A DNA stretch of 60,874 bases, filler included, from Nitrospinae bacterium RIFCSPLOWO2_12_FULL_45_22 (GCA_001803565.1; 5 parts of 5 records of this genome joined end to end with filler, not necessarily neighbours in it); one strand, 5' to 3'. Positions 5,356-51,281 are shown, counted from the whole stretch's first letter. The notes: a model not told the origin generated them from the sequence alone. Translations and numbers: made by a program.

Positions 5356-5398
5356 CTGTCTTTCTCCTAATAGTTTAGTATATCATTTAACTGGAGAT

Positions 5399-6517: not shown

Positions 6518-6563
6518 CTTAGAACTCCTTAGTAGAGCGTCTTCTAAATAACGTTGCAATGCT

Positions 6564-17682: not shown

Positions 17683-17782
17683 NNNNNNNNNNNNNNNNNN
17701 NNNNNNNNNNNNNNNNNNNNNNNNNNTTAATTAATTAANNNNNNNNNNNNNNNNNNNNNNNNNNNNNNNNNNNNNNNNNNNN
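17683..17782. other. Artificial contig linker (N-run with TTAATTAATTAA)
   Basis: Identical 100-nt linkers at 33904-34003, 46034-46133 and 55234-55333. Confidence 0.98.
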
Positions 17783-17989
17783 ACCCGCCGGCCTCTCTTC
17801 GCTACGCCGGAATTGAAAACGAAGATGAAAGATGTTCTGGCAAAGATTCGGTCCGGCGAATTTGCCCGGGAATGGACTGCTGAGCAACAGGCCGGTCAGC
17901 CCTTATTCAATGAATTGAAACGGAAGGCCCTGGAGCATCCATTGAATGCCCTGGAAGATAAAGTCAGGAAAGAATTGAAAGGCGGCTAA
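17783..17989 (+). CDS. ilvC: Ketol-acid reductoisomerase C-terminal end (partial)
   Basis: Own translation ...MKDVLAKIRSGEFAREWTAEQQAGQPLFNELKRKALEHPLNALEDKVRKELKGG*; stop overlaps the pyrK ATG. Confidence 0.75.
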   Translation, partial: TRRPLFATPELKTKMKDVLAKIRSGEFAREWTAEQQAGQPLFNELKRKALEHPLNALEDKVRKELKGG

Positions 17990-18837
17990 TGGAGACTCTC
18001 GTCATGGATAACATTCAACTGGGGCCGAACTATTTTTGTCTGAGGCTCCTCTGCCCCGAAATAGCGCCTGCTTACCAGCCTGGCCAATTCGTTATGCTCC
18101 GGGCATGGGCCGGCTATGACCCTTTACTGCCCAGGCCATTCGCTATTCATCAGACCTGGCAAAGACAAGATCAGGAGCAGCAAGGGATCGATATCCTCTA
18201 CCAGGTAGTAGGCCGGGGTACCAGATTGATGGCTGGACTTAAGCCGGGCGATCAGATATATCTTGTAGGCCCGTTAGGTAAGGGTTTTATTATCCCTGAG
18301 GGACTCCAGAGTGCATTTTTGGTGGGGGGTGGGATGGGGATAGCCCCTTTGCTGGCCCTGGCCCATAAGATTATCCGGGATAGTAGACCATCACCCAAAC
18401 TATCTCTTCTATTAGGTGGCAAGGGGAAAGAAGACCTGTTAAGGGTAAAGGAGTTTATTGAGTTGAAGGTATCGGTTCATCTGGCTACCGAGGATGGGTC
18501 AGTAGGACATAAAGGGTTGGTTACTGAGATGTTGCCTACTATTATACCCCGGCAGCGGCCCCAGGTGATCTATGCCAGTGGTCCAGAGGCAATGCTAAAA
18601 AAGATAGCGCATGAGGCCAGCTACTACGAAATACCGTGTCAGGTATCTTTAGAGAGACTCATGGCCTGCGGGATAGGGGCCTGTTTGAGCTGTGTAACCA
18701 AGACTAGACTAGCACAACCCCCGGAGGGCCTATCGCCAGATGGCGTCAGCCCTACACCATTCCAATACCAGAGGGTATGCCTGGATGGGCCGGTGTTTGA
18801 GGCCCAGGAGGTTATCTGGAATAATGGAGCTGAATAG
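17989..18837 (+). CDS. pyrK: Dihydroorotate dehydrogenase electron transfer subunit
   Basis: PGQFVML, LPRPF, GGGMGIAP and MACGIGACLSC...VCLDGPVF 2Fe-2S motif. Confidence 0.93.
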   Translation: METLVMDNIQLGPNYFCLRLLCPEIAPAYQPGQFVMLRAWAGYDPLLPRPFAIHQTWQRQDQEQQGIDILYQVVGRGTRLMAGLKPGDQIYLVGPLGKGFIIPEGLQSAFLVGGGMGIAPLLALAHKIIRDSRPSPKLSLLLGGKGKEDLLRVKEFIELKVSVHLATEDGSVGHKGLVTEMLPTIIPRQRPQVIYASGPEAMLKKIAHEASYYEIPCQVSLERLMACGIGACLSCVTKTRLAQPPEGLSPDGVSPTPFQYQRVCLDGPVFEAQEVIWNNGAE

Positions 18838-19753
18838 AGAACCGGACCTGTCTATCAATCTAGCTGGGATCAACCTCAAAAACCCGGTGATGACCGCCTC
18901 GGGCACCTTTGGCTACGGAGAGGAGTATGAACCCTATCTAGATTTGAATCGGCTCGGGGCTATAGTCGTGAAGGGCCTTTCTTTAAACCCTTCCCCAGGG
19001 AATCCTCCACCCCGCATGGTAGAGACGCCAGCCGGCATGTTAAACGCTATTGGTTTGCAGAATATCGGGGTAGAGGCTTTTATCCAGGAAAAGATTCCCC
19101 GATTAAAGCAGTTCCAGACCCCTATAATAGTGAATTTCCTGGGTAGCAGTGTAAGGGAATATTGCGATGTAGCAGAAAGGCTCAGTGTAGCCGAGGGGGT
19201 TGCTGGTCTGGAAGTGAACCTCTCCTGCCCCAATATCAAGAAAGGTGGTCTGGCCTTTGGGGTTGACCCAGAAGCTACTTATAGCTTGATCAAAGAAATA
19301 AAGCGGGCAACCTCGCTCCCTCTGCTGGTCAAGCTCTCCCCTAATATAACTGATATAACGGTGCCCGCCAGAGCGGCCGAGGATGGTGGGGCCGATGCCC
19401 TGACACTCATCAATACCGTCCTGGGTATGGCTATAGATATAGAGACCCGCCGGCCCAGGCTGGCCAATGTCACTGGCGGTCTATCAGGACCGGCTATTAA
19501 ACCTATTGCCCTGCGCATGGTCTACCAGGCTGCTCAAGCGGTTAAGATACCTATTATTGGGGTGGGTGGGATAATGACTGGAGAGGATGCCTTAGAGTTT
19601 ATTATTGCCGGGGCTAGTGCCGTACAAATTGGTACGGCCAATTTCTTGGACCCCACCGCTACTATAAGAATAATTGAGGAAATAGAAGCCTACTGCCGCC
19701 AACATAAAATCGCCTCTATCAAAGAGATAATCGCCACCCTAAAGGTTCAGTAA
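18824..19753 (+). CDS. pyrD: Dihydroorotate dehydrogenase (family 1B) catalytic subunit
   Basis: NPVMTASGTFGYG, NLSCPN, VKLSPN, GGLSGPAIKP; start reassigned to ATG 18824. Confidence 0.95.
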   Translation: MELNREPDLSINLAGINLKNPVMTASGTFGYGEEYEPYLDLNRLGAIVVKGLSLNPSPGNPPPRMVETPAGMLNAIGLQNIGVEAFIQEKIPRLKQFQTPIIVNFLGSSVREYCDVAERLSVAEGVAGLEVNLSCPNIKKGGLAFGVDPEATYSLIKEIKRATSLPLLVKLSPNITDITVPARAAEDGGADALTLINTVLGMAIDIETRRPRLANVTGGLSGPAIKPIALRMVYQAAQAVKIPIIGVGGIMTGEDALEFIIAGASAVQIGTANFLDPTATIRIIEEIEAYCRQHKIASIKEIIATLKVQ

Positions 19754-19798
19754 GCGTTCATCTCTGAGGGCCCAGAGCCCATGATTTCTTTGGTTCCT

Positions 19799-21472
19799 CT
19801 ATATGCCTTTGTTCCGCAATATCTGCACCGCTGTTGTAATCTCCACGGCTTGTGATTCAATAATAGCAATCAACTCATCTGGTGTCCTGCTATCTTCTCG
19901 ATTCTTTCGGTTAGGATTAACCGCCTTAAGATCGTAATTTTTCGCCTCAATCTCTTCTATCGGGACTCGCCAGGAACGCCAACTAGATTGCGGAATTTTG
20001 ATTGTGGATTGCGGACTGTCTTTATTCCGCATTCCAAATTCTGCATTCAACAATTGAAAGAACTCCTCAAATTGTTCTGCAGTTAAGGGCTGCTTTTTAG
20101 TTATATTGATATCGGATAAATCGTAATACCAGATTTCTTTCGTAGGCCCCCCTTTGTTAAAAAATAAGAGGTTAGTCTTGCTTGCTGCCCCGGCATTCAT
20201 GAAAACCTTTGGCGGAAGACTCACGATGAGCCATAGGTTGCATTCATTAAGGAGTTTACGCTTGGTCTGGACAAAGGCAGTCTCATTTGTGCGGAACAAG
20301 ACCCCTTCATCCATCACAATCCCGCATCTCCCACCCGGCTTGAGACTATCCATCACATGTTGCAGAAAAAGAACCTGCGTAGCGCTAGTCTTATAGGCGA
20401 AGCAAGTCTGGGCCTCTTTCCCCTCTTTACCGCCGAATGGAGGATTGGTAAGCACCACATCAAAAAGGGCTGGTGCGCTGGAGAAGAGCCCACCATAAAC
20501 CTCAAGCCCCGTCAGTGTGTTTCCATGCCAGATATGGGGTTCATCAATTTCCTGGAGCACGAGGTTTGCCAACGCAATCGGATAAACCAGGTTTTCCTTT
20601 TCTCGGCCATAAAAGGTGCTGGTTTTAAGAATTGCTATTTCTTCCCCTGTGTTTGCCTTCTGCCTCATGAGTTGATATGCTTGCGCTAAAAACCCCCCGG
20701 TTCCGCAACCCGGATCGTAGACTGTCTCTCCGACCTCTGGGTTAATTACCCTCACCATCACCCGGATAACCTCTCTTGGCGTAAAGAACTGTCCACCGTC
20801 ATTGTTTTTCTCCCCCATCTGCTGGAGCAATCCTTCATACACCTGTGAGAGGGTAAACATGTGGGTCTCATCAACCGTTACCGAATGCTGATTTCGGATT
20901 GTGGATTGCGGAATCTTAGATTGAGGAGTTTCTAATATATCCGCATTCCGCATTCCCAATTCCACATTCAAATTGTGGATTTTATCAAGGATATCCAGGA
21001 GGTTACGCTCAGTATCTATCCCGGTCTTTTCAATGGACGAAAAAACCTCACTAATGACTTTCTGCCGAGGAGTGGCTCCTGGTTTGCTTTTAAGGTCTCG
21101 TAGATAAGGTATAAGTTCCGCGTTTACAAAGGACATAAATGCCCCGAGCGTGCTGTTTTGAAGCTCTTTTCTTTTCAACCCTTGAACTTTTAAACCCTGC
21201 GACTCTTTAACTTTGTTTTGTGGCGGTGCGGCCCAGTCGCACCAGCGATATGGATATTCCAAAGACGGTCTAAAATCCGCGCCTACTGCCTTTGCCTGCT
21301 CTGCCTCTTTCTCTTCCCGCTCATCAAGGATACGAAGGAAGAGCATCCAGGTAAGTTCCGGCACATACTGAAGAGCCCCGGCCCGGCCGGAGCGCCGCAT
21401 AATATCGCAGATGCCTTTGATGTAGGCATTCAGCGATTGCGGGGTAGAAATTTTGCGGTTGTTTTTAGCCAT
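19799..21472 (-). CDS. hsdM: Type I R-M methyltransferase subunit with three repeat-derived in-frame insertions
   Basis: GQFFTPR, YDPGCGTGGF (motif I), TNPPF (motif IV); inserts at 19985-20047, 20881-20968 and 21172-21212. Confidence 0.93.
   Translation of the reverse strand: MAKNNRKISTPQSLNAYIKGICDIMRRSGRAGALQYVPELTWMLFLRILDEREEKEAEQAKAVGADFRPSLEYPYRWCDWAAPPQNKVKESQGLKVQGLKRKELQNSTLGAFMSFVNAELIPYLRDLKSKPGATPRQKVISEVFSSIEKTGIDTERNLLDILDKIHNLNVELGMRNADILETPQSKIPQSTIRNQHSVTVDETHMFTLSQVYEGLLQQMGEKNNDGGQFFTPREVIRVMVRVINPEVGETVYDPGCGTGGFLAQAYQLMRQKANTGEEIAILKTSTFYGREKENLVYPIALANLVLQEIDEPHIWHGNTLTGLEVYGGLFSSAPALFDVVLTNPPFGGKEGKEAQTCFAYKTSATQVLFLQHVMDSLKPGGRCGIVMDEGVLFRTNETAFVQTKRKLLNECNLWLIVSLPPKVFMNAGAASKTNLLFFNKGGPTKEIWYYDLSDINITKKQPLTAEQFEEFFQLLNAEFGMRNKDSPQSTIKIPQSSWRSWRVPIEEIEAKNYDLKAVNPNRKNREDSRTPDELIAIIESQAVEITTAVQILRNKGI
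19985..20047 (-). repeat. Heptamer palindrome inside hsdM
   Basis: AATGCAG AATTTGG AATGCGG AAT...TCCGCAA TCCACAA TCAAAAT TCCGCAA, translated as NAEFGMRNKDSPQSTIKIPQS. Confidence 0.85.
20881..20968 (-). repeat. Heptamer palindrome inside hsdM
   Basis: AATGTGG AATTGGG AATGCGG AATGCGG...TCCGCAA TCCACAA TCCGAAA TCAGCAT, translated as NVELGMRNADILETPQSKIPQSTIRNQHS. Confidence 0.88.
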
Positions 21473-21866
21473 TTAATTTCTCCTCGGGGAACATGGTCTT
21501 AATAAAACTCTTAGCCTCTTCCAAATCTTTCTCGATATCTTCACAGGTAAGCTCTAAATCTCCAAGAGGAGGATATCTATCAGCAAAATAATATCCTGTT
21601 ATACGTTCACATAATAGGTAGAAATTTTGAAGTTCAGAATTATATCGAATGGCTTCGTCCAGGAGAGCATCAAGTTCGTGGATCTTTTTAAGCTTCCAGC
21701 CGCACCGGAGAAGAAAGGCCTTAAGATACTTTTCCACACTCTGCTGGAGGAAAAAACCTGCCGCCTCTGGGTCCTGATGCTTTAAATTTCTTTTTGCTCG
21801 CTCCCAATCCTTACGAGCTATCTTTAACCAATCCTCCATATCCGAGTATTCATCAGATTTATTCAT
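21465..21866 (-). CDS. HEPN domain protein (MNT-HEPN pair)
   Basis: WLKIARKDW, FFLQQSVEKYLKAFL, KKIHELDAL, RYP. Confidence 0.88.
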   Translation of the reverse strand: MNKSDEYSDMEDWLKIARKDWERAKRNLKHQDPEAAGFFLQQSVEKYLKAFLLRCGWKLKKIHELDALLDEAIRYNSELQNFYLLCERITGYYFADRYPPLGDLELTCEDIEKDLEEAKSFIKTMFPEEKLNG

Positions 21867-22180
21867 AGTGTAATCCCTTCTTCTAATATATGACGAACAA
21901 ATTGATCCCCTTTTTTTCGCCTTTTTTCTACTTCGTCGGGAGTTAATACAATGGGGGACAGAGGAAGCCCGTTTCGCAAATCACGCATAAGACCTCTCAC
22001 CCTTGCCATCCTTTCAAAGAAGCGCTCATTAGTGGGTGCGATAATAAAAAGGTCTATATCGCTATCTTCCGTTTCCTCTCCTGTAGCATAAGACCCGTAG
22101 AGGATGACCTTCTCGGCATGATATTCTTTCTTCAATCTCTCACTTATCTTTCGCAGCCGTTCGTATATTTCCTGGTTCAT
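21863..22180 (-). CDS. Minimal nucleotidyltransferase (MNT)
   Basis: ILYGSYATGEETEDSDIDL (GS-x10-DxD); ATGA overlap with the HEPN gene. Confidence 0.9.
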   Translation of the reverse strand: MNQEIYERLRKISERLKKEYHAEKVILYGSYATGEETEDSDIDLFIIAPTNERFFERMARVRGLMRDLRNGLPLSPIVLTPDEVEKRRKKGDQFVRHILEEGITL

Positions 22181-22414
22181 ATCGTCACCTTCCTAATTTG
22201 GCCTTAGTATCGCCGATGCCCTTGATATATGCGCCAAATTGAGAAAATAGGGTCTGAGCAAGAATCTCATCTTATTGGTATCAAAGCTTATAAATTCTTT
22301 TTCCTTCTGGCAACTATCAATTATTATAAAGACCGCACGTCTTTCCCTCACATTTTCGTTTTATCAATATGAAAGCTCCGGTCATTTTAACTCCCAAGAA
22401 GAACTATATCATTG

Positions 22415-24256
22415 TCAAAAATAAAATTGATTCAGAATATTACTTTTGTCATTTTCTGGGAACATAATTGTGACAGACTGTCTTGCGCGGGTCACACCAA
22501 CATAAAATAGCTTCCTAAAATTTAGAGTATCCTTGAAACTCCTAGAGTCAACATAAGGTAAAATTATATGATCAAATTCTTTCCCCTTTGCCTGATGAAT
22601 CGTTAAGACATAAATTCCTCTTCTCAGTCTCTGTATGCGTGCAAACTGAAACTGGAGGAACTTACCCTCTATCAATTCAATTATTTCTGATGGAGACAGA
22701 TTGGGATGAACAGTGGCAATGCCTGCAAGGGATTCATAGAGATTAAAGATATCTCTATTGATTCTAAAAGCTCTTCTCAAGATATCGAGTTTTTTACTAA
22801 TCTCTCCGAGCAACGAGGAAATCGCATCTAATTTTGTCGCTAACAGATCATTTATATTCTCAATCAACAATGTGGTTTCTTCTTTTCTATAGCTCCCCTT
22901 GTCAATTGGGCCACCTATTTGGAGATAACTCTTCTCTATTTTATCCCACGGAACCGTATAATTACCATCGCACGATTCTGTTAAAATGGATCGATAAACA
23001 TAAAGAATTATTTTAAGCTTGTTAGACGTTACATCTCCAAGGGAAATTATTAGCCCTCTAAAGAAATTGTGTTGTTTATCTCCTTTGCTGATTTCTTTAC
23101 ACCCAATACCAAATTTTCTAAAGTGCCTGTTAATCTTATGTATATAATCATTCCGATAGAACAGAACTCCAATACTTGATAAAGGCTCCTGTCTTTGAAG
23201 TGATCGCACATATTTATCCAACAAATTAAAACAACCGACTGGAGCAGCTCTTCCTTGAGCATCGAAGGGTTGTAGTTTAAAGTCAGAGCAATTACGACAA
23301 TCTATCGAATTATTTTGCTCCTCTCGATAGTTAAATCGGAGATTTTCGAATATCCGTTTTAACTCAGGCTTATCTTTGAATCTATGCAAAGTGTTAAGGA
23401 ATTTGGGTTGTATGTTGTAAAAATCCTTTGCTTGCCGGAGACGATCTAATGCAGCACCTCGCCACTCATATATCTGCTGAAGCTCATCTGCAAAAAGCAG
23501 GAGATAACCGTTGCCCTTCAATCTCTTAACAATTTCAAACTGTAGATCCGATGAATCCTGAAACTCATCTACAATAATCACAGGATACTTCTCTTGATAA
23601 ATTTCTATTAGGACATTAGATTCGGAGATTATCCTATAAAAGTAATATCCAAAATCGTCAAAATATATTCGACCATTTCTGTTTTCGTTCAATATGAATT
23701 CCCTGATGGGATGAGTATATGCTTTCCACTTGTCAGGGAATTTTATTGGATAGTGAGGTGTCGGAAAAGCAGGGTTATAATACTCAAGCATATTTGATAA
23801 CTGCTCTAATTCCTGATTTCTCTGGTTCTCTCCTCTATGAAGAGCAGGTATTGATGAGTCTTTACGGATAAAAGACTCGAGGGCGTTATATCTTTCCTCA
23901 GGTGATATAATTTCCAAATTAAAAGGTAGTCCCAAATATGTCCTGAAAGCCCATACCTTTTGTCGGAAAAAGCTATGAAAATTTGTTATCTCAATTCTTT
24001 TCTGGGTTTCCTTTGACAATATACGATCAGCCTCTATCTGCAATTCGGCACGGGCATTTTTAGAAAAGGTTAAGAAGAGAGCCCTTTGGTGGGGTTTTAA
24101 TCGTTCCCCTTTATCAAGACCTTTCTCTATAATTGACTGAGCATATAGAACACCAGTTACTGTCTTTCCTGAACCAGGGGGAGCTTCTACAAGAATCACC
24201 TTATCTCTACAGTTGATAATACATTCTTGGTCAGGATCAGGATAGATAATAGACAT
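22415..24256 (-). CDS. gajB: UvrD-like SF1 helicase, Gabija GajB-like
   Basis: APPGSGKT, LTFSKNAR, VDEFQD, QQIYEWRGA, LTIHQAKGKEFD, FYVGVTRAR; overlaps the upstream OLD nuclease gene. Confidence 0.75.
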   Translation of the reverse strand: MSIIYPDPDQECIINCRDKVILVEAPPGSGKTVTGVLYAQSIIEKGLDKGERLKPHQRALFLTFSKNARAELQIEADRILSKETQKRIEITNFHSFFRQKVWAFRTYLGLPFNLEIISPEERYNALESFIRKDSSIPALHRGENQRNQELEQLSNMLEYYNPAFPTPHYPIKFPDKWKAYTHPIREFILNENRNGRIYFDDFGYYFYRIISESNVLIEIYQEKYPVIIVDEFQDSSDLQFEIVKRLKGNGYLLLFADELQQIYEWRGAALDRLRQAKDFYNIQPKFLNTLHRFKDKPELKRIFENLRFNYREEQNNSIDCRNCSDFKLQPFDAQGRAAPVGCFNLLDKYVRSLQRQEPLSSIGVLFYRNDYIHKINRHFRKFGIGCKEISKGDKQHNFFRGLIISLGDVTSNKLKIILYVYRSILTESCDGNYTVPWDKIEKSYLQIGGPIDKGSYRKEETTLLIENINDLLATKLDAISSLLGEISKKLDILRRAFRINRDIFNLYESLAGIATVHPNLSPSEIIELIEGKFLQFQFARIQRLRRGIYVLTIHQAKGKEFDHIILPYVDSRSFKDTLNFRKLFYVGVTRARQSVTIMFPENDKSNILNQFYF

Positions 24257-26126
24257 TGTCTTTAATCTTACCTGTAGCGAATCTTTGAATTATCCCAGCA
24301 AGTTTAACAAAGGTTTCAGGGATCCCCTCTTTATTATTTCTTATTGCCTCTGCAATTATTCTACTTTGTCTTACTGACTTGCAATCCATAGGTGCTTTCT
24401 TACCCGCAATTAGAAGATGTAAGAGTTTTCGTAATTGCATTTCATCAAACTTAGTTTTCATCTCCTTAACCCATTCCGGAAAGGATTCGGTTGATTTAAT
24501 TATATCTAAGTCTTCTGAACTAATAATGTTATCTTTGTCCACAAAATATTGATGGATATTCTTTCTTAGCTGGCTCCACGGTATATACTCCTCAACACAA
24601 TTTTTTATTCCTTCGATCAGTCCTGCAAGGCAGGCCTCTTTTGTAAGTAATTTGTCATAGGTATTCCTTTCTGAATCTTTAGGTAAAACGATAGTAAAAC
24701 TACTACTAGCTATGATTCTATTCAGTTCATCTCCTGATTTATCATTGTCCACAATAGAGATTACACTAAATTCAAGTCTTCTAAAGAAATTTGCGTACTT
24801 ATGAATATCCCCGTGTCCACCACAGTCTATAGACTCAACTCCCAGAGCTTCTAATCCTTCAAATAAGACATCTTCATTATCTGATTTTAGGGTTTTTCCC
24901 TCGAGGGCTCTAAAGAAAATGGGCAAACCTCCTCTTTCGGAAGGACCCTCTACAAGTAAAATATGTTTGGCGAAGAATGCTTGAAGCAATTGATTTCTTT
25001 CATATCTTTCAAAAAACTTTAGCTCTTCGGGAGAACATCTCTTTTCAATGGAGATTATCGAGTGTTCATCTGCTCCAGGTAGAACGATGTTGACAGAACC
25101 AAGGTCAAATGCAGATATGATGTCTGGTGAGTGAGAGGAGACAAATAATTGGAACCTCTTAGACTCGGGATTTTGAAGTCGTCTTGCAATGAGGCGTTGG
25201 TAATATGGTTCGAGGTTATGCTCTGGTTCCTCAAACGCTAATATTAAGTTTTGGCTTTTATCTTCGGATATAATTCTAAAAATTGTTGAAATCAGGACAG
25301 CATCTTGCATCCCAGAACCTTGCATTTCGATAGGAATTTCTGTATCCGTATCAACTCCTCGAAGCACTAAGTTTAAACTCTGCAATACCTTTCGTTCACT
25401 GAGATTTAAGATATTAAGTCGCATGGCTTCTACATTGTCCTCGATAAATTTAAGCCTTGCAATCTCAGACCTCAATTGCTCAAAGCTTCTTTTAAACTCA
25501 AGGTTTTCATCAAGTACAGGTTGTGATTCCTTCATCTTTTCAACTATTTGGGTAATACTGGAACTGAGATCGTGTTTCCCCAAGAGTTTTGAAAACATAG
25601 AGTTTTGATAAAATGCTAATTCATGCAATGGATCTCTATTAGAAGGGATATATAAAAACCCTATTTTCTCCTTCTCATCCCTACTCACTGTCCTCTTATT
25701 AGATTCTGGTTTAGGATAAAATATTGTAGGAGTAAAGGTACTATCACATTCTAATCTTATTCTTAGTACCAATTTATTGTTACCCTTAAATGCTTCTTCA
25801 AAATCTTCATAGGGCAGAAATCGCCCTTCAGGATCCATGACTTCAAGATGTTCATCAAAATGAGAAGCAATATCCTTTTCTTCTTCATCTATAGCGAATA
25901 TCAGTTCGATGACAATAGGTGTTTCAGTTTTTCTCTTGTGGAAATCAAACTCCGTAAATGACTCTCGGTACCAAGGAATATAAGGATTGAGACAGAAATC
26001 TAGTGCTTTGAAGATTGTTGTTTTACCAGAGTTATTACCCCCTATAATTAGATTAATATCATTAGGCCTATAATCTAATTTTTTGATCGAACGAAAATTT
26101 TCAATACTTATTCTGGCAATCTTCAT
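24237..26126 (-). CDS. gajA: OLD-family ATP-dependent nuclease (ABC ATPase + TOPRIM), Gabija GajA-like
   Basis: IENFRSI, GGNNSGKTT, QGSGMQ, FEEPEHNL, SSHSP; TOPRIM LVEGPSE and DND. Confidence 0.78.
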   Translation of the reverse strand: MKIARISIENFRSIKKLDYRPNDINLIIGGNNSGKTTIFKALDFCLNPYIPWYRESFTEFDFHKRKTETPIVIELIFAIDEEEKDIASHFDEHLEVMDPEGRFLPYEDFEEAFKGNNKLVLRIRLECDSTFTPTIFYPKPESNKRTVSRDEKEKIGFLYIPSNRDPLHELAFYQNSMFSKLLGKHDLSSSITQIVEKMKESQPVLDENLEFKRSFEQLRSEIARLKFIEDNVEAMRLNILNLSERKVLQSLNLVLRGVDTDTEIPIEMQGSGMQDAVLISTIFRIISEDKSQNLILAFEEPEHNLEPYYQRLIARRLQNPESKRFQLFVSSHSPDIISAFDLGSVNIVLPGADEHSIISIEKRCSPEELKFFERYERNQLLQAFFAKHILLVEGPSERGGLPIFFRALEGKTLKSDNEDVLFEGLEALGVESIDCGGHGDIHKYANFFRRLEFSVISIVDNDKSGDELNRIIASSSFTIVLPKDSERNTYDKLLTKEACLAGLIEGIKNCVEEYIPWSQLRKNIHQYFVDKDNIISSEDLDIIKSTESFPEWVKEMKTKFDEMQLRKLLHLLIAGKKAPMDCKSVRQSRIIAEAIRNNKEGIPETFVKLAGIIQRFATGKIKDNVYYLS

Positions 26127-26239
26127 CTTTATCTATTCCTTTTTGTTGCTTTTATTATAGAATTCTTGGGTATCCAACTATTGATGAGTTTCCTTTTGAA
26201 TTTCCATTGTCCTTGAGACTTTAAATGATGTAGAAATTA

Positions 26240-26570
26240 GGTAGAAATTAAGGACAGACACTATTTATTCATGCTTGGTTTCTTAGGCCTGTCTTTTAAC
26301 AAAGCATTTAACACTCTACCTACTTTTTTCCTAACTCGGAAAAAATATTGTTGTTCCCAATGTATAATAAAGAAAGGGACATGTCCCATATTATTATTTT
26401 TTTATAGGCATTTACACATTACTAGCCTTCCATCAAAATATAGTGCTTCTAGAAACATTTAAACATAAATTTTTGGGGGTAGAAGTCCTTTAGGCTAGTC
26501 AAGTACATAGGCCCATTTTTTTATATGTTTGAATTAGCAAATTAAATATAGGAAGTGTACCCCTACACCC
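26240..26570 (-). pseudogene. Possible decayed REP-associated tyrosine transposase (RAYT) 3' remnant with flanking motifs
   Basis: Minus-strand KKVGRVLNALLKDRPKK followed by AATAAATAGTGTCTGTCC; also GGGACATGTCCC. Resemblance only. Confidence 0.3.
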
Positions 26571-26604
26571 GTAATTAAGCCTCCCTTCTGTTCTGAATTA
26601 TTAA

Positions 26605-27870
26605 TCATAACTCACCTCTAAATGCCTTTCTTAAAATTGACTGCGGTAAGGCATTCAATGCGGATTGCTGATTTCGGATTGCGGATTGTAGATTTTCAAC
26701 TTGCACCATTTTTTCTTTGAGTTCATCAATAATATTTTTCTGGACTTCTATTGATGGTACAGGGATAACGTAATCTGATAAAAAACTATCAGGCACTCTC
26801 TGTTGGCCAACAGCACCAGTAAAATACGCTGTTGCCTCATTGAGAAAGTAGGGTTGTCGAATAAAACACCAAACCCATTCAGATAGAGCTTCATTGCTGG
26901 GTCTCAAGACATGAAATTCTGTTGTCCCAAAACCTATTCCGTCAATCAAATTTTTTCCAATAACATGTTTTCCATTTTGCATACATGGCGTAATTTTGGC
27001 AAAGAGAACATCGTTTTCTTCGAAGTAAGTATACCCCTTAGCAACCTTTGAATATGGCACAACTTCTGGTTTAGCAACTGTACCCGTTTTCTCATCCACT
27101 GCGGCCATTGGAATAAATGATGTTGGAGAATCAGAAGAGCGAGTGAAATTCTTAGGACGAGAAGAATTAATTTTGCATACTTCTCCAATCTTCTTTCTTT
27201 CCCACTTCTTTGCCGCTTCGCTTTCGAAGACCTCTTGTAGGTAGGCGGCGGGGAGGGCTTTGGCTGCCTCCAGTTGCTTTTCGCAAGCGGTTCGAGCGCG
27301 CCCCACCTCTTGCATCAGTTCCTGAAGCTTTGTGGTGATGCGCTTTTGTTCCTCTATTGGTGGTAAAGGGATAATGTAATTTAATAAAAAGCTATCGGGC
27401 ACTCTTTGCTGGCCAACAGCTCCTGTAAAATACGTAGTTGCTTCTTGTAGGAAATGAGGTTGTCGTATAAAGTAATAAATCCATTCAGGTAAAATTTCAT
27501 TATTGGATCGTAAAACATGAAATTCTGTCGTGCCAAAACCTATTCCATCAATTAAATTTCTTGCTATAACATGCTTGCCATTTTGCATGCATGGCGTAAT
27601 TTTGGCAAAAAGAACATTATTTTCCTCAAAATAAGTATAGCCTTTAGCAACCTTTGAATATGGGACAATTTCGGGTTCAGCAATAGTGCCTGTTTTTTCA
27701 TCAACTGCTGCCATTGGAACAAATGTAGTTGGTGCATCGTGAGAACGAATAAAATTCTTAGGCCGACGAGGATTTATCTCACATACCTGCCCCAACTTTA
27801 CTACTCTCCAATCTTCAGGGATTAAGCTGATTTCTGTTTGTTTGTATTTTATATGGTTAATTTTAGTCAT
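26605..27870 (-). CDS. hsdS: Type I R-M specificity subunit with two near-identical TRDs
   Basis: IPEDW, IPLPPIEEQKRI, SILRKAFRGEL; both TRDs carry FAKITPCMQNGK...GFGTTEFHVLR...GAVGQQRVP. Confidence 0.93.
   Translation of the reverse strand: MTKINHIKYKQTEISLIPEDWRVVKLGQVCEINPRRPKNFIRSHDAPTTFVPMAAVDEKTGTIAEPEIVPYSKVAKGYTYFEENNVLFAKITPCMQNGKHVIARNLIDGIGFGTTEFHVLRSNNEILPEWIYYFIRQPHFLQEATTYFTGAVGQQRVPDSFLLNYIIPLPPIEEQKRITTKLQELMQEVGRARTACEKQLEAAKALPAAYLQEVFESEAAKKWERKKIGEVCKINSSRPKNFTRSSDSPTSFIPMAAVDEKTGTVAKPEVVPYSKVAKGYTYFEENDVLFAKITPCMQNGKHVIGKNLIDGIGFGTTEFHVLRPSNEALSEWVWCFIRQPYFLNEATAYFTGAVGQQRVPDSFLSDYVIPVPSIEVQKNIIDELKEKMVQVENLQSAIRNQQSALNALPQSILRKAFRGEL
26657..26694 (-). repeat. Solo heptamer arm overprinted on the hsdS C-terminal helix
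   Basis: TCTACAA TCCGCAA TCCGAAA TCAGCAA TCCGCAT, translated as NLQSAIRNQQSAL. Confidence 0.8.
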
Positions 27871-27874
27871 TTGT

Positions 27875-28306
27875 TTAAGTTTTTTTAATATATTCTACCC
27901 ATCCAAAAGGCAATAAATCACATTTCCAGGGTAGTATTTCATATATACTTAAATGGTCTTTCGTTATTAGCTCTATTATTTTCCAAAAATATTCATCTAT
28001 TTGCCAAGGATAATGTCCTTTACTAATTCTTTCTTTCCAATGTCCTCGTGCTTCCTTTGGTAACATGGTCCACCAACAATCTACACTTATATGATACATC
28101 CGATAAACAATCCTCCACTTATCTAATTCTGGTTGCGGATCTTCATAGTCGCCAGATATTAAAGGATCATGATCTTTCAATCGATGTCTAATACCTGGCA
28201 TTTCTTGAGAATATTTATCCATTTGTGTATCTACTTTAACTTCTGGATAACCACACGCCCCAAAAGCCATTTTCCAAAGTTTCCTATGCAGTCTATTATT
28301 TGGCAT
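27875..28306 (-). CDS. Orphan Trp/His-rich protein in the defence island
   Basis: GGAGG RBS, AT-rich, no recognised family; RHRLKDHDP...YHISVD pattern. Confidence 0.7.
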   Translation of the reverse strand: MPNNRLHRKLWKMAFGACGYPEVKVDTQMDKYSQEMPGIRHRLKDHDPLISGDYEDPQPELDKWRIVYRMYHISVDCWWTMLPKEARGHWKERISKGHYPWQIDEYFWKIIELITKDHLSIYEILPWKCDLLPFGWVEYIKKT

Positions 28307-28326
28307 ATCCTCCCACTTTCCAATCC

Positions 28327-28695
28327 TCAGGGATTAAGCAAAAGTTTCTGTCGGCTTTGGTCATTTGAGCCCTTTGCAAGCCCTTTATGAGTCGTTTGAC
28401 GCCTTTCTGGCCCCTTTCTGACCCCTTTGGCTCCTCTTGGCACATATTCTGTTCCCTTACCAGTGATACCAATTTGCTCAATAATGTTTCTTTTAACCAA
28501 ATCTTCTAAATCTCTTGTAGCGGTTCTCTTTGAAACCATATTAAGTTCCTGATATTTTTTATTCGTAATCTTCTCTTTCTCCTTCACATACATCACCGCC
28601 TTTATCTGCCGCTCGCTCAGTCCCATCTTTGTCAGATTTTCCTCTGTATAAATATCTTTGTAGAAATAGACCGAAAAGCCGCCCATCTCTTCCAT
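28327..28695 (-). pseudogene. C-terminal HTH fragment of an ATP-binding (RecG-C/Schlafen-type) transcriptional regulator
   Basis: EEMGGFSVYFYKDIYTEENL.KMGLSERQIKAVMYVKE..KITNK.YQEL...SKRTATRDL resembles the C-terminus of that family; its ATG is supplied by a heptamer arm. Confidence 0.6.
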
Positions 28696-28809
28696 TGCGG
28701 AATTCGGAGTGCGGATTGATGATGTCGGAATGCGGAATTCGGATTGTGAAATTATTTGCCTTTTTTATCATTTCCTGTATTCCCCATTCCGAATTCTGCA
28801 TTCCCCATC
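28695..28809 (-). repeat. Heptamer palindrome at the 3' end of the four-helix-bundle gene
   Basis: GATGGGG AATGCAG AATTCGG AATGGGG...TTCACAA TCCGAAT TCCGCAT TCCGACA TCATCAA TCCGCAC TCCGAAT TCCGCAA. Confidence 0.88.
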
Positions 28810-29184
28810 TTTTCGATTTCTCCGAGCCGTTTTTATGGATGTAACCACAATTGCAATAATTTCGTTAGCTTCATTCATTAGGCGTTGAATCTGATTTTGC
28901 TCTACCAATCTTGCATCAAGTAGTAATTCTAACCAGTAAAGGGTTTCATCGGCTTCCTCTTCAACAATACCCATTTTAGAAATAAAATCAGCCCTTGATC
29001 TCGCTCTACAAGCTGCACGATAATTAGCTCCAATAGATGTTCCCGACCTCAGGATCTGTCTACCCAATACATCTGCAATACGATTTTTAGGGAGATTTTC
29101 TACCAATCTAATTATTTCCAAAGCAAACTTCCTTGTTCTTTCTTTCAAATCTTCATTCCGCATTCCCAAATCCGCATTCCGCAT
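28768..29184 (-). CDS. Four-helix-bundle protein (23S rRNA intervening-sequence protein family, TIGR02436-like, Avd-related fold)
   Basis: LKERTRKFALEII, QILRSGTSIGANYRAACRARSRADFISKMGIVEEEADETLYWLELL. Confidence 0.93.
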   Translation of the reverse strand: MRNADLGMRNEDLKERTRKFALEIIRLVENLPKNRIADVLGRQILRSGTSIGANYRAACRARSRADFISKMGIVEEEADETLYWLELLLDARLVEQNQIQRLMNEANEIIAIVVTSIKTARRNRKDGECRIRNGEYRK

Positions 29185-29185
29185 T
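29151..29185 (-). repeat. Solo heptamer arm encoding the start of the four-helix-bundle gene
   Basis: AATGCGG AATGCGG ATTTGGG AATGCGG AATGAAG, translated as MRNADLGMRNE. Confidence 0.85.
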
Positions 29186-30228
29186 TATATCAGTCCTGCC
29201 ATTGCAAAGCTAAAATAATCCTCTTGGTTTTTACCAATGATTATGTGGTCTAAAACCTTTATACCGAACAGGTTACAGGCATCTATAATGGCGTTTGTTA
29301 TTTTGCTATCTTCCGCCGATGGCTCGGTATCTCCTGAGGGATGATTATGAACTAAAATAATTGACGAGGCAGACCGCAATGTGGCCTCTTTTATAATCTC
29401 TTTCGGATCAACTATACTTGCGTTAATGCTGCCTTTACTGATCTCTACATTGTGAAGGGGTTTGTTCTTTATATCCAGGAGGATCACACTAAAAAACTCT
29501 TTCTTGGCATCCCTCAGGTATGGGCCGTAATATTCCGCTACATAGGCAATCACATCATCAGCCTTTTTTATCCTCTTCTTTTTTTCCGCTTCTTCTTTAA
29601 AAAATCTTTTACCCAGCTCCAGTGCCACTTTTATTTGAACCGCCTTGGCATACCCAATACCATCCATCTTACAAATTTCAGAGATAGGTGCGGAATCTAG
29701 CTCTCTTAATGTCCCAAACCGATTCAGTAACCTTTTGGCTAACTCTTCTGCATTAATCCCTTCTTTGCCGGTTCGCAGGATTATGGCCAGGAGTTTGGAT
29801 AATGGAAGAGAGTCTGGCCCATATTTTATCGCCATCTCCCTGGGCCTTTCTTCTTTTATCCACTCCCTGATCGGGCGATTTTCTCTATGGGCCGCTACCT
29901 GCTCCCTCACTGCTTTCCTTATCCTGTCGCAATCATCAGCGGTTTTGATGTTTAACTGGGCAATGATTTCCTGAGATCTGGCGTCAGTTAATAGCCCTTT
30001 CCTGGAGCATCTGAGAAAAATCTTGCCCCTTTTGCTACATAAAGGATAAATGGCATTCGCCACCAGGAAATCCATTATCTCCATTGTGGAATGCGGATTG
30101 TGAATTGCGGAATCATTCGAGTGCGGATTGATGATTTCGGATTGCTGATTAGAATATTGATGGCCTCTTTGCTCATTTTTCATTCTTCTATTCCCCATTC
30201 TAAAATCCGCATTCCTCATTGTGTTCAT
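29185..30228 (-). CDS. radC: RadC/JAB-domain protein with N-terminal extension (alternative start 30084)
   Basis: ERPRE, LLAIILRTG, GIGYAKA (HhH), VHNHPSGDTEPSAED, LDHIIIG. Confidence 0.92.
   Translation of the reverse strand: MNTMRNADFRMGNRRMKNEQRGHQYSNQQSEIINPHSNDSAIHNPHSTMEIMDFLVANAIYPLCSKRGKIFLRCSRKGLLTDARSQEIIAQLNIKTADDCDRIRKAVREQVAAHRENRPIREWIKEERPREMAIKYGPDSLPLSKLLAIILRTGKEGINAEELAKRLLNRFGTLRELDSAPISEICKMDGIGYAKAVQIKVALELGKRFFKEEAEKKKRIKKADDVIAYVAEYYGPYLRDAKKEFFSVILLDIKNKPLHNVEISKGSINASIVDPKEIIKEATLRSASSIILVHNHPSGDTEPSAEDSKITNAIIDACNLFGIKVLDHIIIGKNQEDYFSFAMAGLI
30084..30220 (-). repeat. Heptamer palindrome at the hsdR/radC junction
   Basis: AATGAGG AATGCGG ATTTTAG AATGGGG...TCAGCAA TCCGAAA TCATCAA TCCGCAC...TCCGCAA TTCACAA TCCGCAT TCCACAA. 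Confidence 0.88.
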
Positions 30229-32624
30229 GCGGCGAATAGTCTCCTCTTGGCCTCATTAATAATCTCGTGAGGTTCTCCAAGTATTTTTAAGGCCCCAAGA
30301 CCGCCTGCCTTAGCCACATCCGGGGCATTGAATATATAAGGATTTTCCAGCTCTTCGGTGCCGCCCCTTTCAAACTGCCTGGCAAGGGCGATCAAGGTTT
30401 CTGCGGCCCTCGGAGGCAAACTCTTAAACCACTCACTATGTTTGTATCGTAATGCCGAAACACGCTCAGCACGGTCTTTGGGAACGATTCCATATCCAAT
30501 CACCGCAAGGACATCGTAAAGGTCGCAATCTTTGCGGTTTAAAAGCTCCCGGAGCAATCGCAAGCCTTGCCCATCACCGGGCAACACTTCAATAAGTGCT
30601 TTTCGCCTCTGTGGGTCAATCCAGCAGTTTCTGAAGTCTTCCAGGGTCTTGACCTCTTCCAGCAAGCGAGCCGCTATGATCTGTTGATATTCCTCGAGGG
30701 TGATCATCCCCAGTTTACCCTTTACCTGGGTCGCTATATAAGTCCCAGCCGGATTTATATGAACATCAAACCCTTCTACCCGGATTATTTTTTCTTTTTC
30801 TACCTCCTCAGGTTCTTTAGACTCCCGTGTGGGCGAAGGGCGGCACTCAAAACCTTTTCCTAAGAGACGGGTGGCATTGGTGTAATCATAGACCCGAAAC
30901 ATCAATTTATTAGTCGGCAAGTGAATTCTTGAACCCCTTCCCATCATCTGCTGGAAAGAAATAGGAGAGCGGACATATTTGAAAAAGACGACATTGCGCA
31001 AAATGGGGACATCAACCCCTGTGGTTATTAAATCAACGGTAGTGGCGATAAAATGGCTGCGCTCGGAGCCGCGCAAATCGGCAATATACTGGGTCCCTCT
31101 TACCGCGGCAGTGCATTTGAAGGCATAAGGCTCGGCGCGAATGTGGAATTTGGATTGCGGACTGCGGAATTCAGAATTTGTTTTCTTATTCCACATTCCC
31201 AGTTCCGCATTCTGCATTCGTTTCCACCATTGGGCATAGAGATTGTTCATTTCGGCGGCAACTGCATCGGCATGGGTATCCCGGGTGCAAAAGATGACGG
31301 TCTTCTGGTGGGGACCGCCGGTTTGAAGAAACATTTCGAAGAGGTCCTGGCACATAGCTTTTACCCTGTCAGGCAACTGAATTATATCTTCAAAGGACGG
31401 CGCCTCGTAAGTCTCACGAGTCTCATCGGGAGTGAGTGCTTGCCCCGTGGTGGCGTCCCGTGCCCCCAGTACCTCAATATCCTCCCGGGTTACCCCTTTT
31501 ATATCGAGATTCACCTCTTGTCTGATGATTTCGCACGCCGGAAGATAACCGTCTTCAATCCCCTGCGCCATGTCGTATTCATAGACTGGTTCACCAAAGT
31601 ATTTGAGATTATCGGCAGTTATTTCTTCATCCTCCCCACGTTCATCCTGGGTCCCTCCTTCAAAAGAACGTGGGGTTGCGGTGAGCCCGATTTGAACCGC
31701 ATCTGGGTTTTGGCGCAGCACGAGACTCCATTTCCCCCACGCGCTTCTATGACATTCATCAATAATGATATGGCTGAAATAATTTTGGGGATAATTCTCG
31801 AGGAAAAACCTGGCATCTTCCGTCTCTCCTGCCACATTAAGTGTCTGGTAGGTTGCAATCAAGATGCGGGCATTCTTCTGAGGCTTTGCTGTTGTTACTT
31901 CGGCTGCATCAGCCCCGAAGACATTCTGGAAAGCACCCAGGGCCTGGGTACGCAATTCATCCCGGTCGCAGATAAATAAGGCACGGCGAAGCTGTCCAGC
32001 GTCCGCAATCTTCTTCAAGAGGTGCACCGCAATAAAAGTTTTTCCCGATCCGGTTGCCAGAAAGAGGAGTAATCTTTTTTGGCCCCTAACTATTTTCTCA
32101 AGCAAGGCCCGAATAGCAGCGTCCTGATAGTAGCGTCTGCTGGCCTCTCCACCTGGATATGGAACTAATAGCGGTTTGGCAGTTTCACTTTCCAGAGAAA
32201 CCCCGATGGATTTTTCGTAGCGCCGACGCAATTCAGAGGGAGAGGGGAATTCTCCTAAGGGACGAGGCTTAGAAGTTAGACCGGTAAGCTGGTTGTATTC
32301 CACGAATAGATGTCCATTAGAAGAATAAACAAAAGGAACATGGTTCAAACGGGCATATTTCTTTGCCTGTTCAAGACCTTTATCCGGAGGCTCATCGTTT
32401 CTCTTCGCCTCAATTAAGGCAATGGCTACCGGCTGGGTATTGATGTTTACCCGCACTCTCAAGAGATAATCTGTCCTACCCCACTCTTTTCGTTTTGGCC
32501 GGCCATCTATGATATCAATCCCGTGCTCGGTCTCTTCACGGCGGATAAGGTCTTCTGTCCAGCCCCGCTGGTGGAGGACAGGGTCAATGAGTTTTGCTTT
32601 AGTATCGGCCTCGCTTAATGACAT
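30225..32624 (-). CDS. hsdR: Type I restriction enzyme R subunit (EcoEI-like) with in-frame repeat insertion
   Basis: SEADTKAKLID, TDY...IEAK nuclease motif, RYYQDAAI, ATGSGKT, IIDECHRS, GLTATP, TTGVDVP, QMMGRGSR. Confidence 0.93.
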   Translation of the reverse strand: MSLSEADTKAKLIDPVLHQRGWTEDLIRREETEHGIDIIDGRPKRKEWGRTDYLLRVRVNINTQPVAIALIEAKRNDEPPDKGLEQAKKYARLNHVPFVYSSNGHLFVEYNQLTGLTSKPRPLGEFPSPSELRRRYEKSIGVSLESETAKPLLVPYPGGEASRRYYQDAAIRALLEKIVRGQKRLLLFLATGSGKTFIAVHLLKKIADAGQLRRALFICDRDELRTQALGAFQNVFGADAAEVTTAKPQKNARILIATYQTLNVAGETEDARFFLENYPQNYFSHIIIDECHRSAWGKWSLVLRQNPDAVQIGLTATPRSFEGGTQDERGEDEEITADNLKYFGEPVYEYDMAQGIEDGYLPACEIIRQEVNLDIKGVTREDIEVLGARDATTGQALTPDETRETYEAPSFEDIIQLPDRVKAMCQDLFEMFLQTGGPHQKTVIFCTRDTHADAVAAEMNNLYAQWWKRMQNAELGMWNKKTNSEFRSPQSKFHIRAEPYAFKCTAAVRGTQYIADLRGSERSHFIATTVDLITTGVDVPILRNVVFFKYVRSPISFQQMMGRGSRIHLPTNKLMFRVYDYTNATRLLGKGFECRPSPTRESKEPEEVEKEKIIRVEGFDVHINPAGTYIATQVKGKLGMITLEEYQQIIAARLLEEVKTLEDFRNCWIDPQRRKALIEVLPGDGQGLRLLRELLNRKDCDLYDVLAVIGYGIVPKDRAERVSALRYKHSEWFKSLPPRAAETLIALARQFERGGTEELENPYIFNAPDVAKAGGLGALKILGEPHEIINEAKRRLFAA
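31141..31218 (-). repeat. Heptamer palindrome inside hsdR
   Basis: AATGCAG AATGCGG AACTGGG AATGTGG AAT...TCTGAAT TCCGCAG TCCGCAA TCCAAAT TCCACAT, translated as RMQNAELGMWNKKTNSEFRSPQSKFHI. Confidence 0.88.
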
Positions 32625-33017
32625 ATCTGAACCCCTTATATCCCTTTCTTCTCTTTTCTTATTCTAGCTTAAGTAATCATTGTGGGTCAACAATTTCCTA
32701 TGGCTTTGCGGTTCCTCCGCTATAATAAATAATTGTCCTCATTTTCGATAAATACCGATGGGGAAAAGGTCAGGCGTTGATTTTTAAGCTCTTCATGGGT
32801 AGTCGTTCTGGGGGGATTTACCGTCGAGACACAGATGCGAGGAGGATAGAAAGTCTAACGAGCAAATCGCTTTTGCTTGCGCCTTTTCGGCAAGGGGAGT
32901 AGTTCAACCCTCTTTCCAAGAGAGCGTCGGCGTGGGTCTAGGAATGCCTCTTCCATCTCCCAGTCATGGATACCATGTCTGAACAAGTTTTTATTAATAG
33001 GGTATGGCTATTTTCTG

Positions 33018-33195
33018 TCATTTCCTGGCAAGAAAGACTACCAGGAGATTTAACCCTAGTCTTAATAATGAGGAAAAAATGTTCCGCTCCACTTCATGCA
33101 ATGCATGCTGCTGAGCATCTCCCTGCACGTATGCTAAAATATCCTGGAAAGATTTTTCTGCCTCTGCTATACTTCGATTCAACTTTAACAAGGTT
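33018..33195 (-). pseudogene. Frameshifted N-terminal remnant of an ISKra4-like transposase
   Basis: Own translation FQDILAYVQGDAQQHALHEVERNIF / LLRLGLNLLVVFLARK* resembles ISKra4 N-termini. Confidence 0.45.
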
Positions 33196-33345
33196 AATCC
33201 TCTTTTTGGCTTAATATGGAAACATTTAATAATGGTTAATATGTTTTTTACACATTATGCCTTAAGGAGGACCTTGTATCACTAATAAGTTAAAATTATA
33301 TTAAATTTATTCGTTTTTTTATTGACCTAAAATAGCCACAACCAA

Positions 33346-33903
33346 ATGATTAGTAAGTTAAGCTACTTCAAAGGATCCTTTCTGGTAACATTATTAGGAC
33401 TTTCTGCAGCATTTATGCTGGGTGGTCCCAATGCCATAATTATTGCGTCAGTCTTAAGTATTTTAGAAGTATCACTCTCATTTGACAATGCTGTTGTCAA
33501 TGCGACAGTTTTAAGAACTATGGAGGTAAAATGGCGCCACAGATTTATTACCTGGGGCATATTAATTGCGGTCTTTGGCATGAGGATAGTATTCCCTTTA
33601 TTGATCGTAGGCATTGTTGCTCACTTGGGACCAGTCGAAACAATAATTATGGCCATTAAGAATCCAGGAGATTATGAAAGATATCTAACTTCAGCCCACT
33701 TATCAGTCGCAGGGTTCGGGGGGGCCTTCTTGATGATGGTATTCCTGAAATTTTTCTTCAACGAGGATAAGGATATTCACTGGATAAAATTTATTGAGAA
33801 ACCTCTTACCAGGTTCGGGAAGATAGAGGCATTTGAAATTCTGCTTACCATAATGGCTATCTATGTAATTACTACTTATCTCCCAGAGCAGGGGAAATTT
33901 GAA
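33346..33903 (+). CDS. DUF475 (TerC/YkoY-like) membrane protein, N-terminal part cut by contig gap
   Basis: LEVSLSFDNAVVNATVL, WGILIAVFGMRIVFP, AGFGGAFLMMVFL. Confidence 0.85.
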
Positions 33904-34003
33904 NNNNNNNNNNNNNNNNNNNNNNNNNNNNNNNNNNNNNNNNNNNNTTAATTAATTAANNNNNNNNNNNNNNNNNNNNNNNNNNNNNNNNNNNNNNNNN
34001 NNN

Positions 34004-51269: not shown

Positions 51270-51281
51270 CTAAAAATAGAT

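Follow-up and report, generated by a model that had tools for sequence, protein, structure and literature searches.

In Coxiella burnetii, the 23S rRNA gene carries at helix 45 an intervening sequence (IVS) in which tandem heptamers, of a unit that differs from GGAATGC, lie upstream of an S23p open reading frame (ORF); strains differ in how many heptamers they carry, and the first repeat is where RNase III cuts (PMC4990558). Proteins of the same family, PF05635, resemble in sequence and structure Avd of the diversity-generating retroelements (DGRs), which is needed for retrohoming, a templated rewrite of DNA (PMC10053308), and heptamers without a known mechanism also include the TAACTGA repeats of Beggiatoaceae, Cyanobacteria and Bacteroidetes (PMC4679880). 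PF05635/S23p proteins have been without a known function since they were found in rRNA intervening sequences, and bacterial heptamer repeats are likewise unexplained. The short tandemly repeated repetitive (STRR) sequences of cyanobacteria are further heptamer repeats without a known mechanism, while small hairpins or simple repeats inside type I restriction–modification (R-M) genes are familiar from repetitive extragenic palindromic (REP) sequences and bacterial interspersed mosaic elements (BIMEs) with their RAYT transposases, and from the simple sequence repeats (SSRs) of phase-variable hsd genes. Here we analyse a stretch of 60,874 nucleotides from Nitrospinae bacterium RIFCSPLOWO2_12_FULL_45_22 (GCA_001803565.1; hereafter the window), in which a gene for a PF05635/S23p four-helix-bundle protein (IVP) is enclosed by inverted arrays of the heptamer GGAATGC and stands within a type I R-M operon that carries the same heptamer in four of its other genes. 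We think it probable that a widespread family of selfish elements is represented in this island by one copy with a gene and several without. The locus ties PF05635/S23p proteins to heptamer repeats through a cassette with its cognate repeat, dated in-frame daughter copies in four well-understood genes and a relative with a decaying cassette.

An IVP cassette and heptamer hairpins in one operon

The interval 28695–29185 is an IVS-type cassette, a PF05635 gene enclosed by inverted heptamer arrays, and has the design of the ORF-bearing intervening sequences of 23S rRNA set in a protein-coding operon (Table 1). Folding of 28685–29195 pairs 29153–29176 with 28696–28720 around the whole gene (z −3.1), with the inner 3′ hairpin nested within this outer stem; minimum-free-energy and centroid structures agree on both features. 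The gene is the single IVP ORF of the window, its nearest relatives carry GGAATGC-family units, and close homologues in the protein database have N-termini that start with peptides coded by the same heptamer. On its 3′ side the cassette abuts orf122, which corresponds to the last ~120 residues of an AlbA_2/HATPase_c_4 gene of 450–470 aa in relatives (tblastn matches at the 3′ ends of long ORFs in loci L017, L029, L080 and others, named by Pfam). Because that gene is full length in at least nine related operons and only its C-terminal remnant adjoins the cassette here, arrival of the cassette, or a later deletion, would have removed most of it. No Rfam family reached its gathering score on the island contig, including the cassette between radC and the truncated gene. 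An 11-base tandem repeat lies within orf122 at 28397–28428.

Around this cassette, left arms read on the coding strand as runs of GGAATGC and right arms as runs of GCAATCC mixed with GCATTCC. The five complete sites form hairpins of 63–137 nt, whose long stems are interrupted by mismatches at regular spacing, with z scores of −2.4 to −5.0 on the coding strand and about equal values on the other. A preliminary description of the window, made from its sequence, had listed seven heptamer sites, all of which are present at the coordinates given there, and had held that the heptamer occurs nowhere else in it. This stands for tandem runs (at least two units, at most one mismatch per unit), which are restricted to 20001–31218, and not for isolated units: AATGCGG occurs 18 times against 6.95 expected, a count reached by none of 100 shuffles, with 11 copies inside 19985–31218 and the remaining 7 elsewhere as single units. 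TCCGCAW occurs 30 times against 12.4 expected, again reached by 0 of 100 shuffles, and a three-unit scan (at least 18 of 21 matches) made nine calls, all within 20024–31177, where 20 shuffles averaged 0.05.

The window strings together at least five separate contigs of one bin, joined by runs of N around a TTAATTAATTAA linker, and the island contig spans only 17783–33903, so that the contrast with the rest of the window is one between contigs of a single bin and is weaker than it appears. The island contig is identical to a 16,121-base metagenome contig (locus L001), its 11 genes, named by Pfam, all lie on the minus strand, and the reading frames of all host genes stay open. Assembled contigs of four other sequencing runs cover the island with 0 differences, including the spans 19724–21397, 21446–27167, 28566–29257 and 29228–31274. 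Across 19700–32700, contigs of four runs had no letters lost or gained at the sites that would mark unit-number or excised forms; as contigs drop rare variants, this makes no statement on rare forms. In one contig of run X5, 28 other letters stand between 31130 and 31225; this is an hsdR relative that lacks the insert. Joints between 26685–26688 and 29151–29165 were considered as excisions and rejected, since other letters stand between their two sides; we read them as other hairpin copies in the community, of which read-depth peaks at the arrays indicate many.

No unit variant contains a stop codon in any of the six frames, which bears out and extends what had been said of the consensus unit. 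As 7 is not divisible by 3, each arm codes in all of its three frames for one cyclic heptapeptide, which is GMRNAEC in left arms and AIRNPQS in right arms. Copies inside genes can therefore be expected to survive if their length is a multiple of three and their site a tolerant loop, and this pattern is seen in hsdR, radC and hsdM. The gene-internal copies do keep frame, as had been proposed, and alignment with homologues defines lineage-specific in-frame inserts in hsdR, in radC and, twice, in hsdM. The HsdR insert, a net gain of 22 aa, is absent in 14 of 14 aligned relatives. In HsdM, the 27-residue peptide of the first hairpin (hsdM-1) is absent from 30 of 30 aligned relatives and falls between the two aligned parts of PDB 5ybb, and the 16-residue insert is absent from 29 of 30, the remaining one (L009) sharing it at the same site. 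The site previously taken for a junction of hsdR and radC is instead an insert within radC: it leaves the ATGA overlap with the hsdR stop intact, and in five relatives that overlap leads directly into the conserved RadC N-terminus with no hairpin. Its position, compared with that of the L045 element described below, makes this hairpin a likely remnant of an IVP cassette.

The hsdS site is of another kind. The array noted there is present, as a right arm only, and it brings no change in length relative to homologues. Of the hsdS 3′ ends of 50 related operons, the array-type allele accounts for 22 and an equally long allele without the repeat for 23, the other 5 being divergent. By this comparison the hsdS array is an old same-length allele shared among related operons, not an insert, and is independent of the IVP gene of this window.

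HsdM has a further in-frame insert at ~21176–21217 (residues 86–99), of an octamer-repeat type with GTTCAAGG-like units. Across relatives, residue ~90 of HsdM is a hot spot that holds GGAATGC arrays, octamer hairpins (L013), a nested palindrome (L054) or, in many, nothing. Pairing of the hsdS right array with left arrays at this hot spot, as a regulatory stem, was rejected because the window has the octamer-type insert there instead. Selection at the protein level for the A-rich unit in coding copies was likewise dropped: ratios of exact GCATTCC to GCAATCC units downstream of left arms are alike in coding-sense (9:8), antisense (5:4) and non-ORF copies (15:11). An AlphaFold model of HsdM from a 32-row alignment was poor (mean predicted local distance difference test (pLDDT) 62.6, predicted template modelling score 0.47) and is not used as evidence; its pLDDT is below 50 over residues 170–268, well past the first insert, and only its dips at 88–93 and 480–493 coincide neatly with inserts.

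Table 1 Heptamer sites, genes and contig joins of the window
Feature	Position	Strand	Description
IVP cassette, outer 5′ arm	29151–29185	−	GGAATGC array; also codes the first residues of the longest IVP frame
IVP cassette, inner hairpin	28722–28809	−	3′ end of cassette; left arm overlaps IVP stop region; fold z −3.3
IVP cassette, outer 3′ arm	28695–28721	−	Ends at orf122 start codon
hsdR hairpin	31141–31218	−	Complete (GGAATGC arm, loop, GCAATCC arm); residues ~469–494; fold z −5.0
radC hairpin	30084–30220	−	Complete; in frame after codon 3; fold z −2.4
hsdM hairpin, first (hsdM-1)	20881–20968	−	Complete; residues ~171–197; +27 aa in frame; fold z −5.0
hsdM hairpin, second	19985–20047	−	Complete; residues ~477–492; net +16 aa in frame; fold z −3.0
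hsdS array	26657–26694	−	GCAATCC right arm without a left arm; within the conserved C-terminal helix of HsdS
hsdR	30225–32624	−	799 aa; Pfam ResIII, SWI2_SNF2, EcoEI_R_C; match to PDB 3h1t
radC	29185–30228	−	347-aa open frame, RadC family from residue ~128; Pfam RadC, UPF0758_N; NCBIfam RadC
IVP four-helix-bundle gene	28768–29184	−	138 aa; PF05635 1.3e-21, TIGR02436 5e-29, PDB 2rld 3e-24
orf122	28327–28695	−	3′ neighbour of IVP cassette; no family of its own by Pfam
143-residue ORF	27875–28306	−	No Pfam or NCBIfam family
hsdS	26605–27870	−	421 aa; Pfam Methylase_S, two stretches
GajA-like (AAA_15 + OLD TOPRIM) and GajB-like (UvrD) pair	22415–26126	−	Between hsdS and MNT/HEPN pair
MNT/HEPN pair		−	Between GajA/GajB-like pair and hsdM; Pfam
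hsdM	19799–21472	−	557 aa (497–530 aa in relatives); Pfam N6_Mtase, HsdM_N
Contig joins (N and TTAATTAATTAA)	17683–17782, 33904–34003, 46034–46133, 55234–55333		Genes across joins are not physically linked

Hairpins with periodic arms of other kinds occur on the other contigs of the window, at 2376–2555, 3425–3497 with 50832–50908, 41027–41150, 51281–51402 and 14521–14547. Their units include heptamers of AATGCAA/AATTAGC and GTCAGC type and an octamer family present twice, and none adjoins an IVP gene in the window.

Related operons and IVP loci of other genomes

We compared the island with related hsdR–radC–hsdS–hsdM operons in a sample of 80 hsdM loci from metagenomes, that is, L001 and 79 others, among them the near-duplicates L042/L063, L047/L049 and L010/L036/L038. 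Relatives usually have the order hsdR, radC, variable genes, hsdS, variable genes, hsdM, with highly varied cargo between the hsd genes (TIR, MNT/HEPN, IrrE-like, OLD/UvrD pairs, KAP, reverse transcriptase, Fic, PIN and others). Near-duplicates included, the 79 loci hold 22 heptamer-family arrays, all of them in the 324 kb of operon sequence and none in the 307 kb of flanking DNA: nine at the hsdS C-terminus, nine at HsdM residue ~90, and one each at the HsdM site shared with the window, at the start of radC, at the start of hsdS and between genes. No IVP ORF was found in any of the 79 loci, nor among 71 cargo ORFs by Pfam. The suggestion that all sites depend on a resident IVP gene is not supported, since hsdS arrays and HsdM residue-90 arrays occur in these IVP-less operons. 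From the comparison, the host operon appears to belong to a mosaic, horizontally moving family that tolerates inserts, swaps defence cargo and already carried GGAATGC-family arrays at these two places.

One relative preserves what seems to be an intermediate. Directly after the hsdR stop of L045, positions 3749–3920 hold the first ~12 IVP codons and a short remainder between a left and a right arm, all of it joined in frame to radC; the element aligns with the 5′ end of the window's cassette and sits at the same junction as the radC hairpin. As judged from this alignment, the L045 element is an internally deleted IVP cassette and shows decay of a cassette to a hairpin, so that at least some gene-less hairpins, as in L045, arise by internal deletion of cassettes. 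It is the only gene-less copy with recognizable IVP sequence.

Several cargo genes of the relatives may be noted. Five loci (L014, L017, L019, L021 and L055) have OLD/UvrD genes of their own in the slot of the GajA/GajB-like pair, L029 carries an RVT_1 reverse-transcriptase ORF between hsdS and hsdM (4723–6615), and weak IS200-like Y1 transposase ORFs (E ~7e-7) lie within the hsd operons of L026 (371–1054) and L054 (9188–9568), which might bear on the movement of small hairpins in such operons. The 143-residue ORF of the window had no tblastn match in the 79 related loci.

Beyond this operon, relatives of the IVP protein (E ≤ 1e-20) are encoded in 57 of 401 Planctomycetota genomes. Among the 30 best of these loci, 28 have period-7 arrays directly beside the gene and 19 have them on both sides, with units that are reverse complements within one mismatch in 16 of the 19. 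IVP clades differ in their unit, which clusters on the protein tree: with the array-less L229 and L230 left aside, 14 changes are counted, compared with 18.4 in shuffles, none of the 200 being as low. Since kin share unit labels, this clustering shows only that arms and gene travel together. At L236, about five 45-base modules (4480–4707), each with a heptamer array, lie upstream of the IVP gene, and three inverted modules (5164–5286) lie downstream.

Arrays are not confined to such cassettes. Three perfect units occur at 123 or more places in contigs representing one genome per species, from many phyla, and strict two-unit matches in five whole genomes number 1091, 55, 101, 49 and 417, against 9, 6, 4, 10 and 3 IVP genes and 0–6 matches for reversed-pattern controls. 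Of 80 sampled array loci with flanks, 3 have an IVP ORF within 300 bases and 1 (L105) has R-M-like neighbours; 26 of the 80 arrays lie 80 or more codons deep in an open frame, 18 in GMRNAEC sense and 8 opposite, and gene-internal arrays occupy interdomain positions of purL (twice), mutL and cobQ. The IVP hidden Markov model (HMM) used here is narrow, being built from close relatives, and Pfam on 178 ORFs gave the same IVP loci except for L144, whose IVP ORF is outside that set. Neighbours of 17 Planctomycetota cassettes are mostly housekeeping genes, defence-like ones being found only at L213 and L216. The association of the heptamer with R-M genes drawn in the preliminary description is therefore not general: elsewhere the repeat is genome-wide, and cassettes mostly keep other company. 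In the literature outside subscription journals, the Coxiella IVS paper was the only one found with heptamer repeats next to an S23p ORF, and searches for heptamer-armed IVP cassettes in protein-coding operons or for in-frame heptamer hairpins returned none.

Local spread, inheritance with the operon, and other explanations

That the small protein and its repeat spread locally was the central suggestion of the preliminary description, and the evidence points both ways. Among the 80 operons only that of the window has an IVP gene, and it has nine array calls against at most two in each of the 79 others; four of its seven sites are specific to this operon, namely the cassette, the hairpins of hsdR and hsdM-1 and the radC hairpin in its enlarged form. 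Rare variants recur within the island: an exact 15-mer of odd unit variants is common to the hsdM-1 right arm and the hsdS array and is found elsewhere among 242 loci only in hsdS of L002, L011 and L013, and a rare 15–17-mer is common to the 3′ arm of the cassette and the right arm of the radC hairpin. When the count is limited to 15-mers that none of 192 background arrays contains, sharing is seen in 2 of 36 island pairs, against 0.42% in the background (nominal P ~0.01). A chemotaxis operon of a second genome (G191) shows the same clustering, with 10 array calls spread over six of its gene junctions and no more than 8.5 kb from its IVP gene; the whole 3.9-Mb genome has 7 strict matches. Over nine pooled GGAATGC-type IVP loci, 124 kb hold 5 strict matches outside the cassettes, compared with 420 in 46 Mb at the genome level, an excess of roughly four-fold that is driven by G191 and should be taken as a rough figure. 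These findings are modest evidence for local spread.

Other results weigh against a selfish element that multiplies in place. There are no arrays within 10 kb of the IVP gene in G301, which has the closest IVP relative, or in G333, and sharing of plain non-consensus 15-mers shows no excess (3 of 36 island pairs against a background of 13.8%). The loops of the five island hairpins are mutually unrelated, with only the periodic arms in common, unlike copies of a classical miniature inverted-repeat transposable element (MITE). At the DNA level the hsdR site, compared with four relatives, is a net 66-nt insert with diverged edges and no clear target-site duplication, and simple insertion does not explain the hsdS array, which replaces native sequence without change in length. 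The 22 arrays of the 79 loci, which include near-duplicates, represent fewer independent events, and array density for this organism rests on the contigs of one bin only. No mobility enzyme was seen in the island: the 11 genes include no transposase family by Pfam, the gene-carrying form codes for a PF05635 protein only, and to our knowledge IVP is no known transposase or recombinase and has no known mobility enzyme.

The same observations bear on whether anything spreads locally at all. Arrays could have been gained in array-rich donor genomes and have travelled with the operon by horizontal transfer, the IVP cassette being a separate arrival and no site needing a resident IVP gene. Such hitch-hiking would fit the 79 IVP-less loci with arrays in the operon and none in the flanks, the old and shared hsdS and HsdM residue-90 arrays, the existence of genomes with hundreds of copies (G001, G005), the absence of a local excess in G301 and G333 and the negative plain k-mer test. 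It does not account for the four sites specific to the one operon with an IVP gene, for the rare variants common to arms within the island, or for the G191 operon with its concentration of calls beside the IVP gene, and we regard it as an unlikely alternative, yet one to be taken seriously. An artefact of low complexity, assembly error, mis-binning or chance is scarcely credible: the concatenation of bin contigs does weaken the internal contrast, as said above, but the nine calls compare with 0.05 in shuffles, contigs of four other runs and the identical contig L001 reproduce the island, and all host frames are open.

We consider it very unlikely that the repeats are useful parts of the operon, whether as stems that set the ratio of HsdR, HsdM and HsdS through RNA processing or stability or as phase switches by 7-nt slippage. 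From hsdR to orf122 each module boundary does carry an array, as does the end of hsdS; the arrays of G191 punctuate the gene junctions of the chemotaxis operon, and the unit, at 7 nt, is not a whole number of codons. In rRNA intervening sequences RNase III cleaves at stems of this kind, and repeat number differs among Coxiella strains (PMC4990558). Against this, the 30 HsdM relatives without the hsdM-1 hairpin and the 14 HsdR relatives without the hsdR hairpin work without them, so these hairpins are not conserved parts of the operon, and the same element is found in purL, mutL, cobQ and intergenic DNA of many phyla. Frame-switching by slippage, as raised in the preliminary description, is not supported: the island arrays are degenerate, with at most two perfect units adjacent, and hence poorly suited to slippage. 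A role of the element as a dedicated regulator of restriction–modification is not supported.

Under the reading we favour, a gene-carrying selfish element with gene-less copies, arrays already in the operon may have given the cassette its landing or homology sites; neighbouring arrays could have been the local source of new copies, with the IVP protein possibly acting as a nucleic-acid-binding factor, and the stems in the transcript might be RNase III substrates, by analogy with rRNA intervening sequences. A bolder version, which we hold to be distinctly unlikely, is that IVP proteins are trans-acting, unit-specific factors of a copying process that writes its own heptamer into nearby DNA from neighbouring arrays. 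If true, such a process would explain the unrelated loops, the length-neutral replacement in hsdS, the operon-wide punctuation near an IVP gene and the heptamer repeats of many phyla, and would resemble the action of an Avd-type nucleic-acid chaperone without a dedicated reverse transcriptase.

Comparison with known systems

The locus gives no evidence for a new control of restriction–modification. Its interest lies in a stop-free 7-base unit, by which a selfish repeat can colonize coding sequence, as in the type I R-M subunits here and in purL, mutL and cobQ elsewhere, with relevance to gene annotation and to odd low-complexity loops in metagenome proteins.

From the systems to which PF05635 or hairpins in R-M genes might point, the island differs in several respects. 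Unlike a DGR, it has no RVT family among its 11 genes, no pair of template and variable repeats is evident, though no dedicated search for one was made, and its arrays are not adenine-mutagenized copies. Unlike REP sequences and their RAYTs, it has no Y1_Tnp among its genes by Pfam. Phase-variable SSRs are long perfect tracts, whereas the arrays here, for all their 7-nt unit, are degenerate.

STRR and TAACTGA heptamer repeats are also short tandem 7-base units, which occur in many sets per genome, are patchily spread over phyla and have no known origin. Both kinds are described as direct and mostly intergenic, and, for the TAACTGA repeats, the available text of the paper draws no link to IVP genes, inverted arms or in-frame copies, the terms ‘four helix’ and ‘intervening’ occurring in it 0 times (PMC4679880). 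The Rickettsia palindromic elements (RPEs) and intragenic MITEs likewise are short palindromes in frame in unrelated genes, where the added peptide is tolerated (PMC10969869). MITE-like features here are small size, terminal inverted repeats and many copies, with five hairpins in the island and hundreds of arrays in other genomes. RPE copies, however, share ~150 bp of conserved internal sequence and peptide (PMC10969869), whereas the copies here share periodic arms only, these arms are tandem 7-mers, and a gene-carrying form with an IVP gene exists.

The nearest counterpart is the 23S rRNA IVS of C. burnetii, Leptospira and others, where, as here, a PF05635/S23p ORF is enclosed by complementary ends that form a stem, tandem heptamers lie just upstream of the ORF (here at 29151–29185) and the element is regarded as selfish (PMC4990558). 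In contrast to those intervening sequences, the host here is a protein-coding R-M operon and not an rRNA gene, both arms are multi-unit heptamer arrays, and gene-less copies lie in frame inside proteins.

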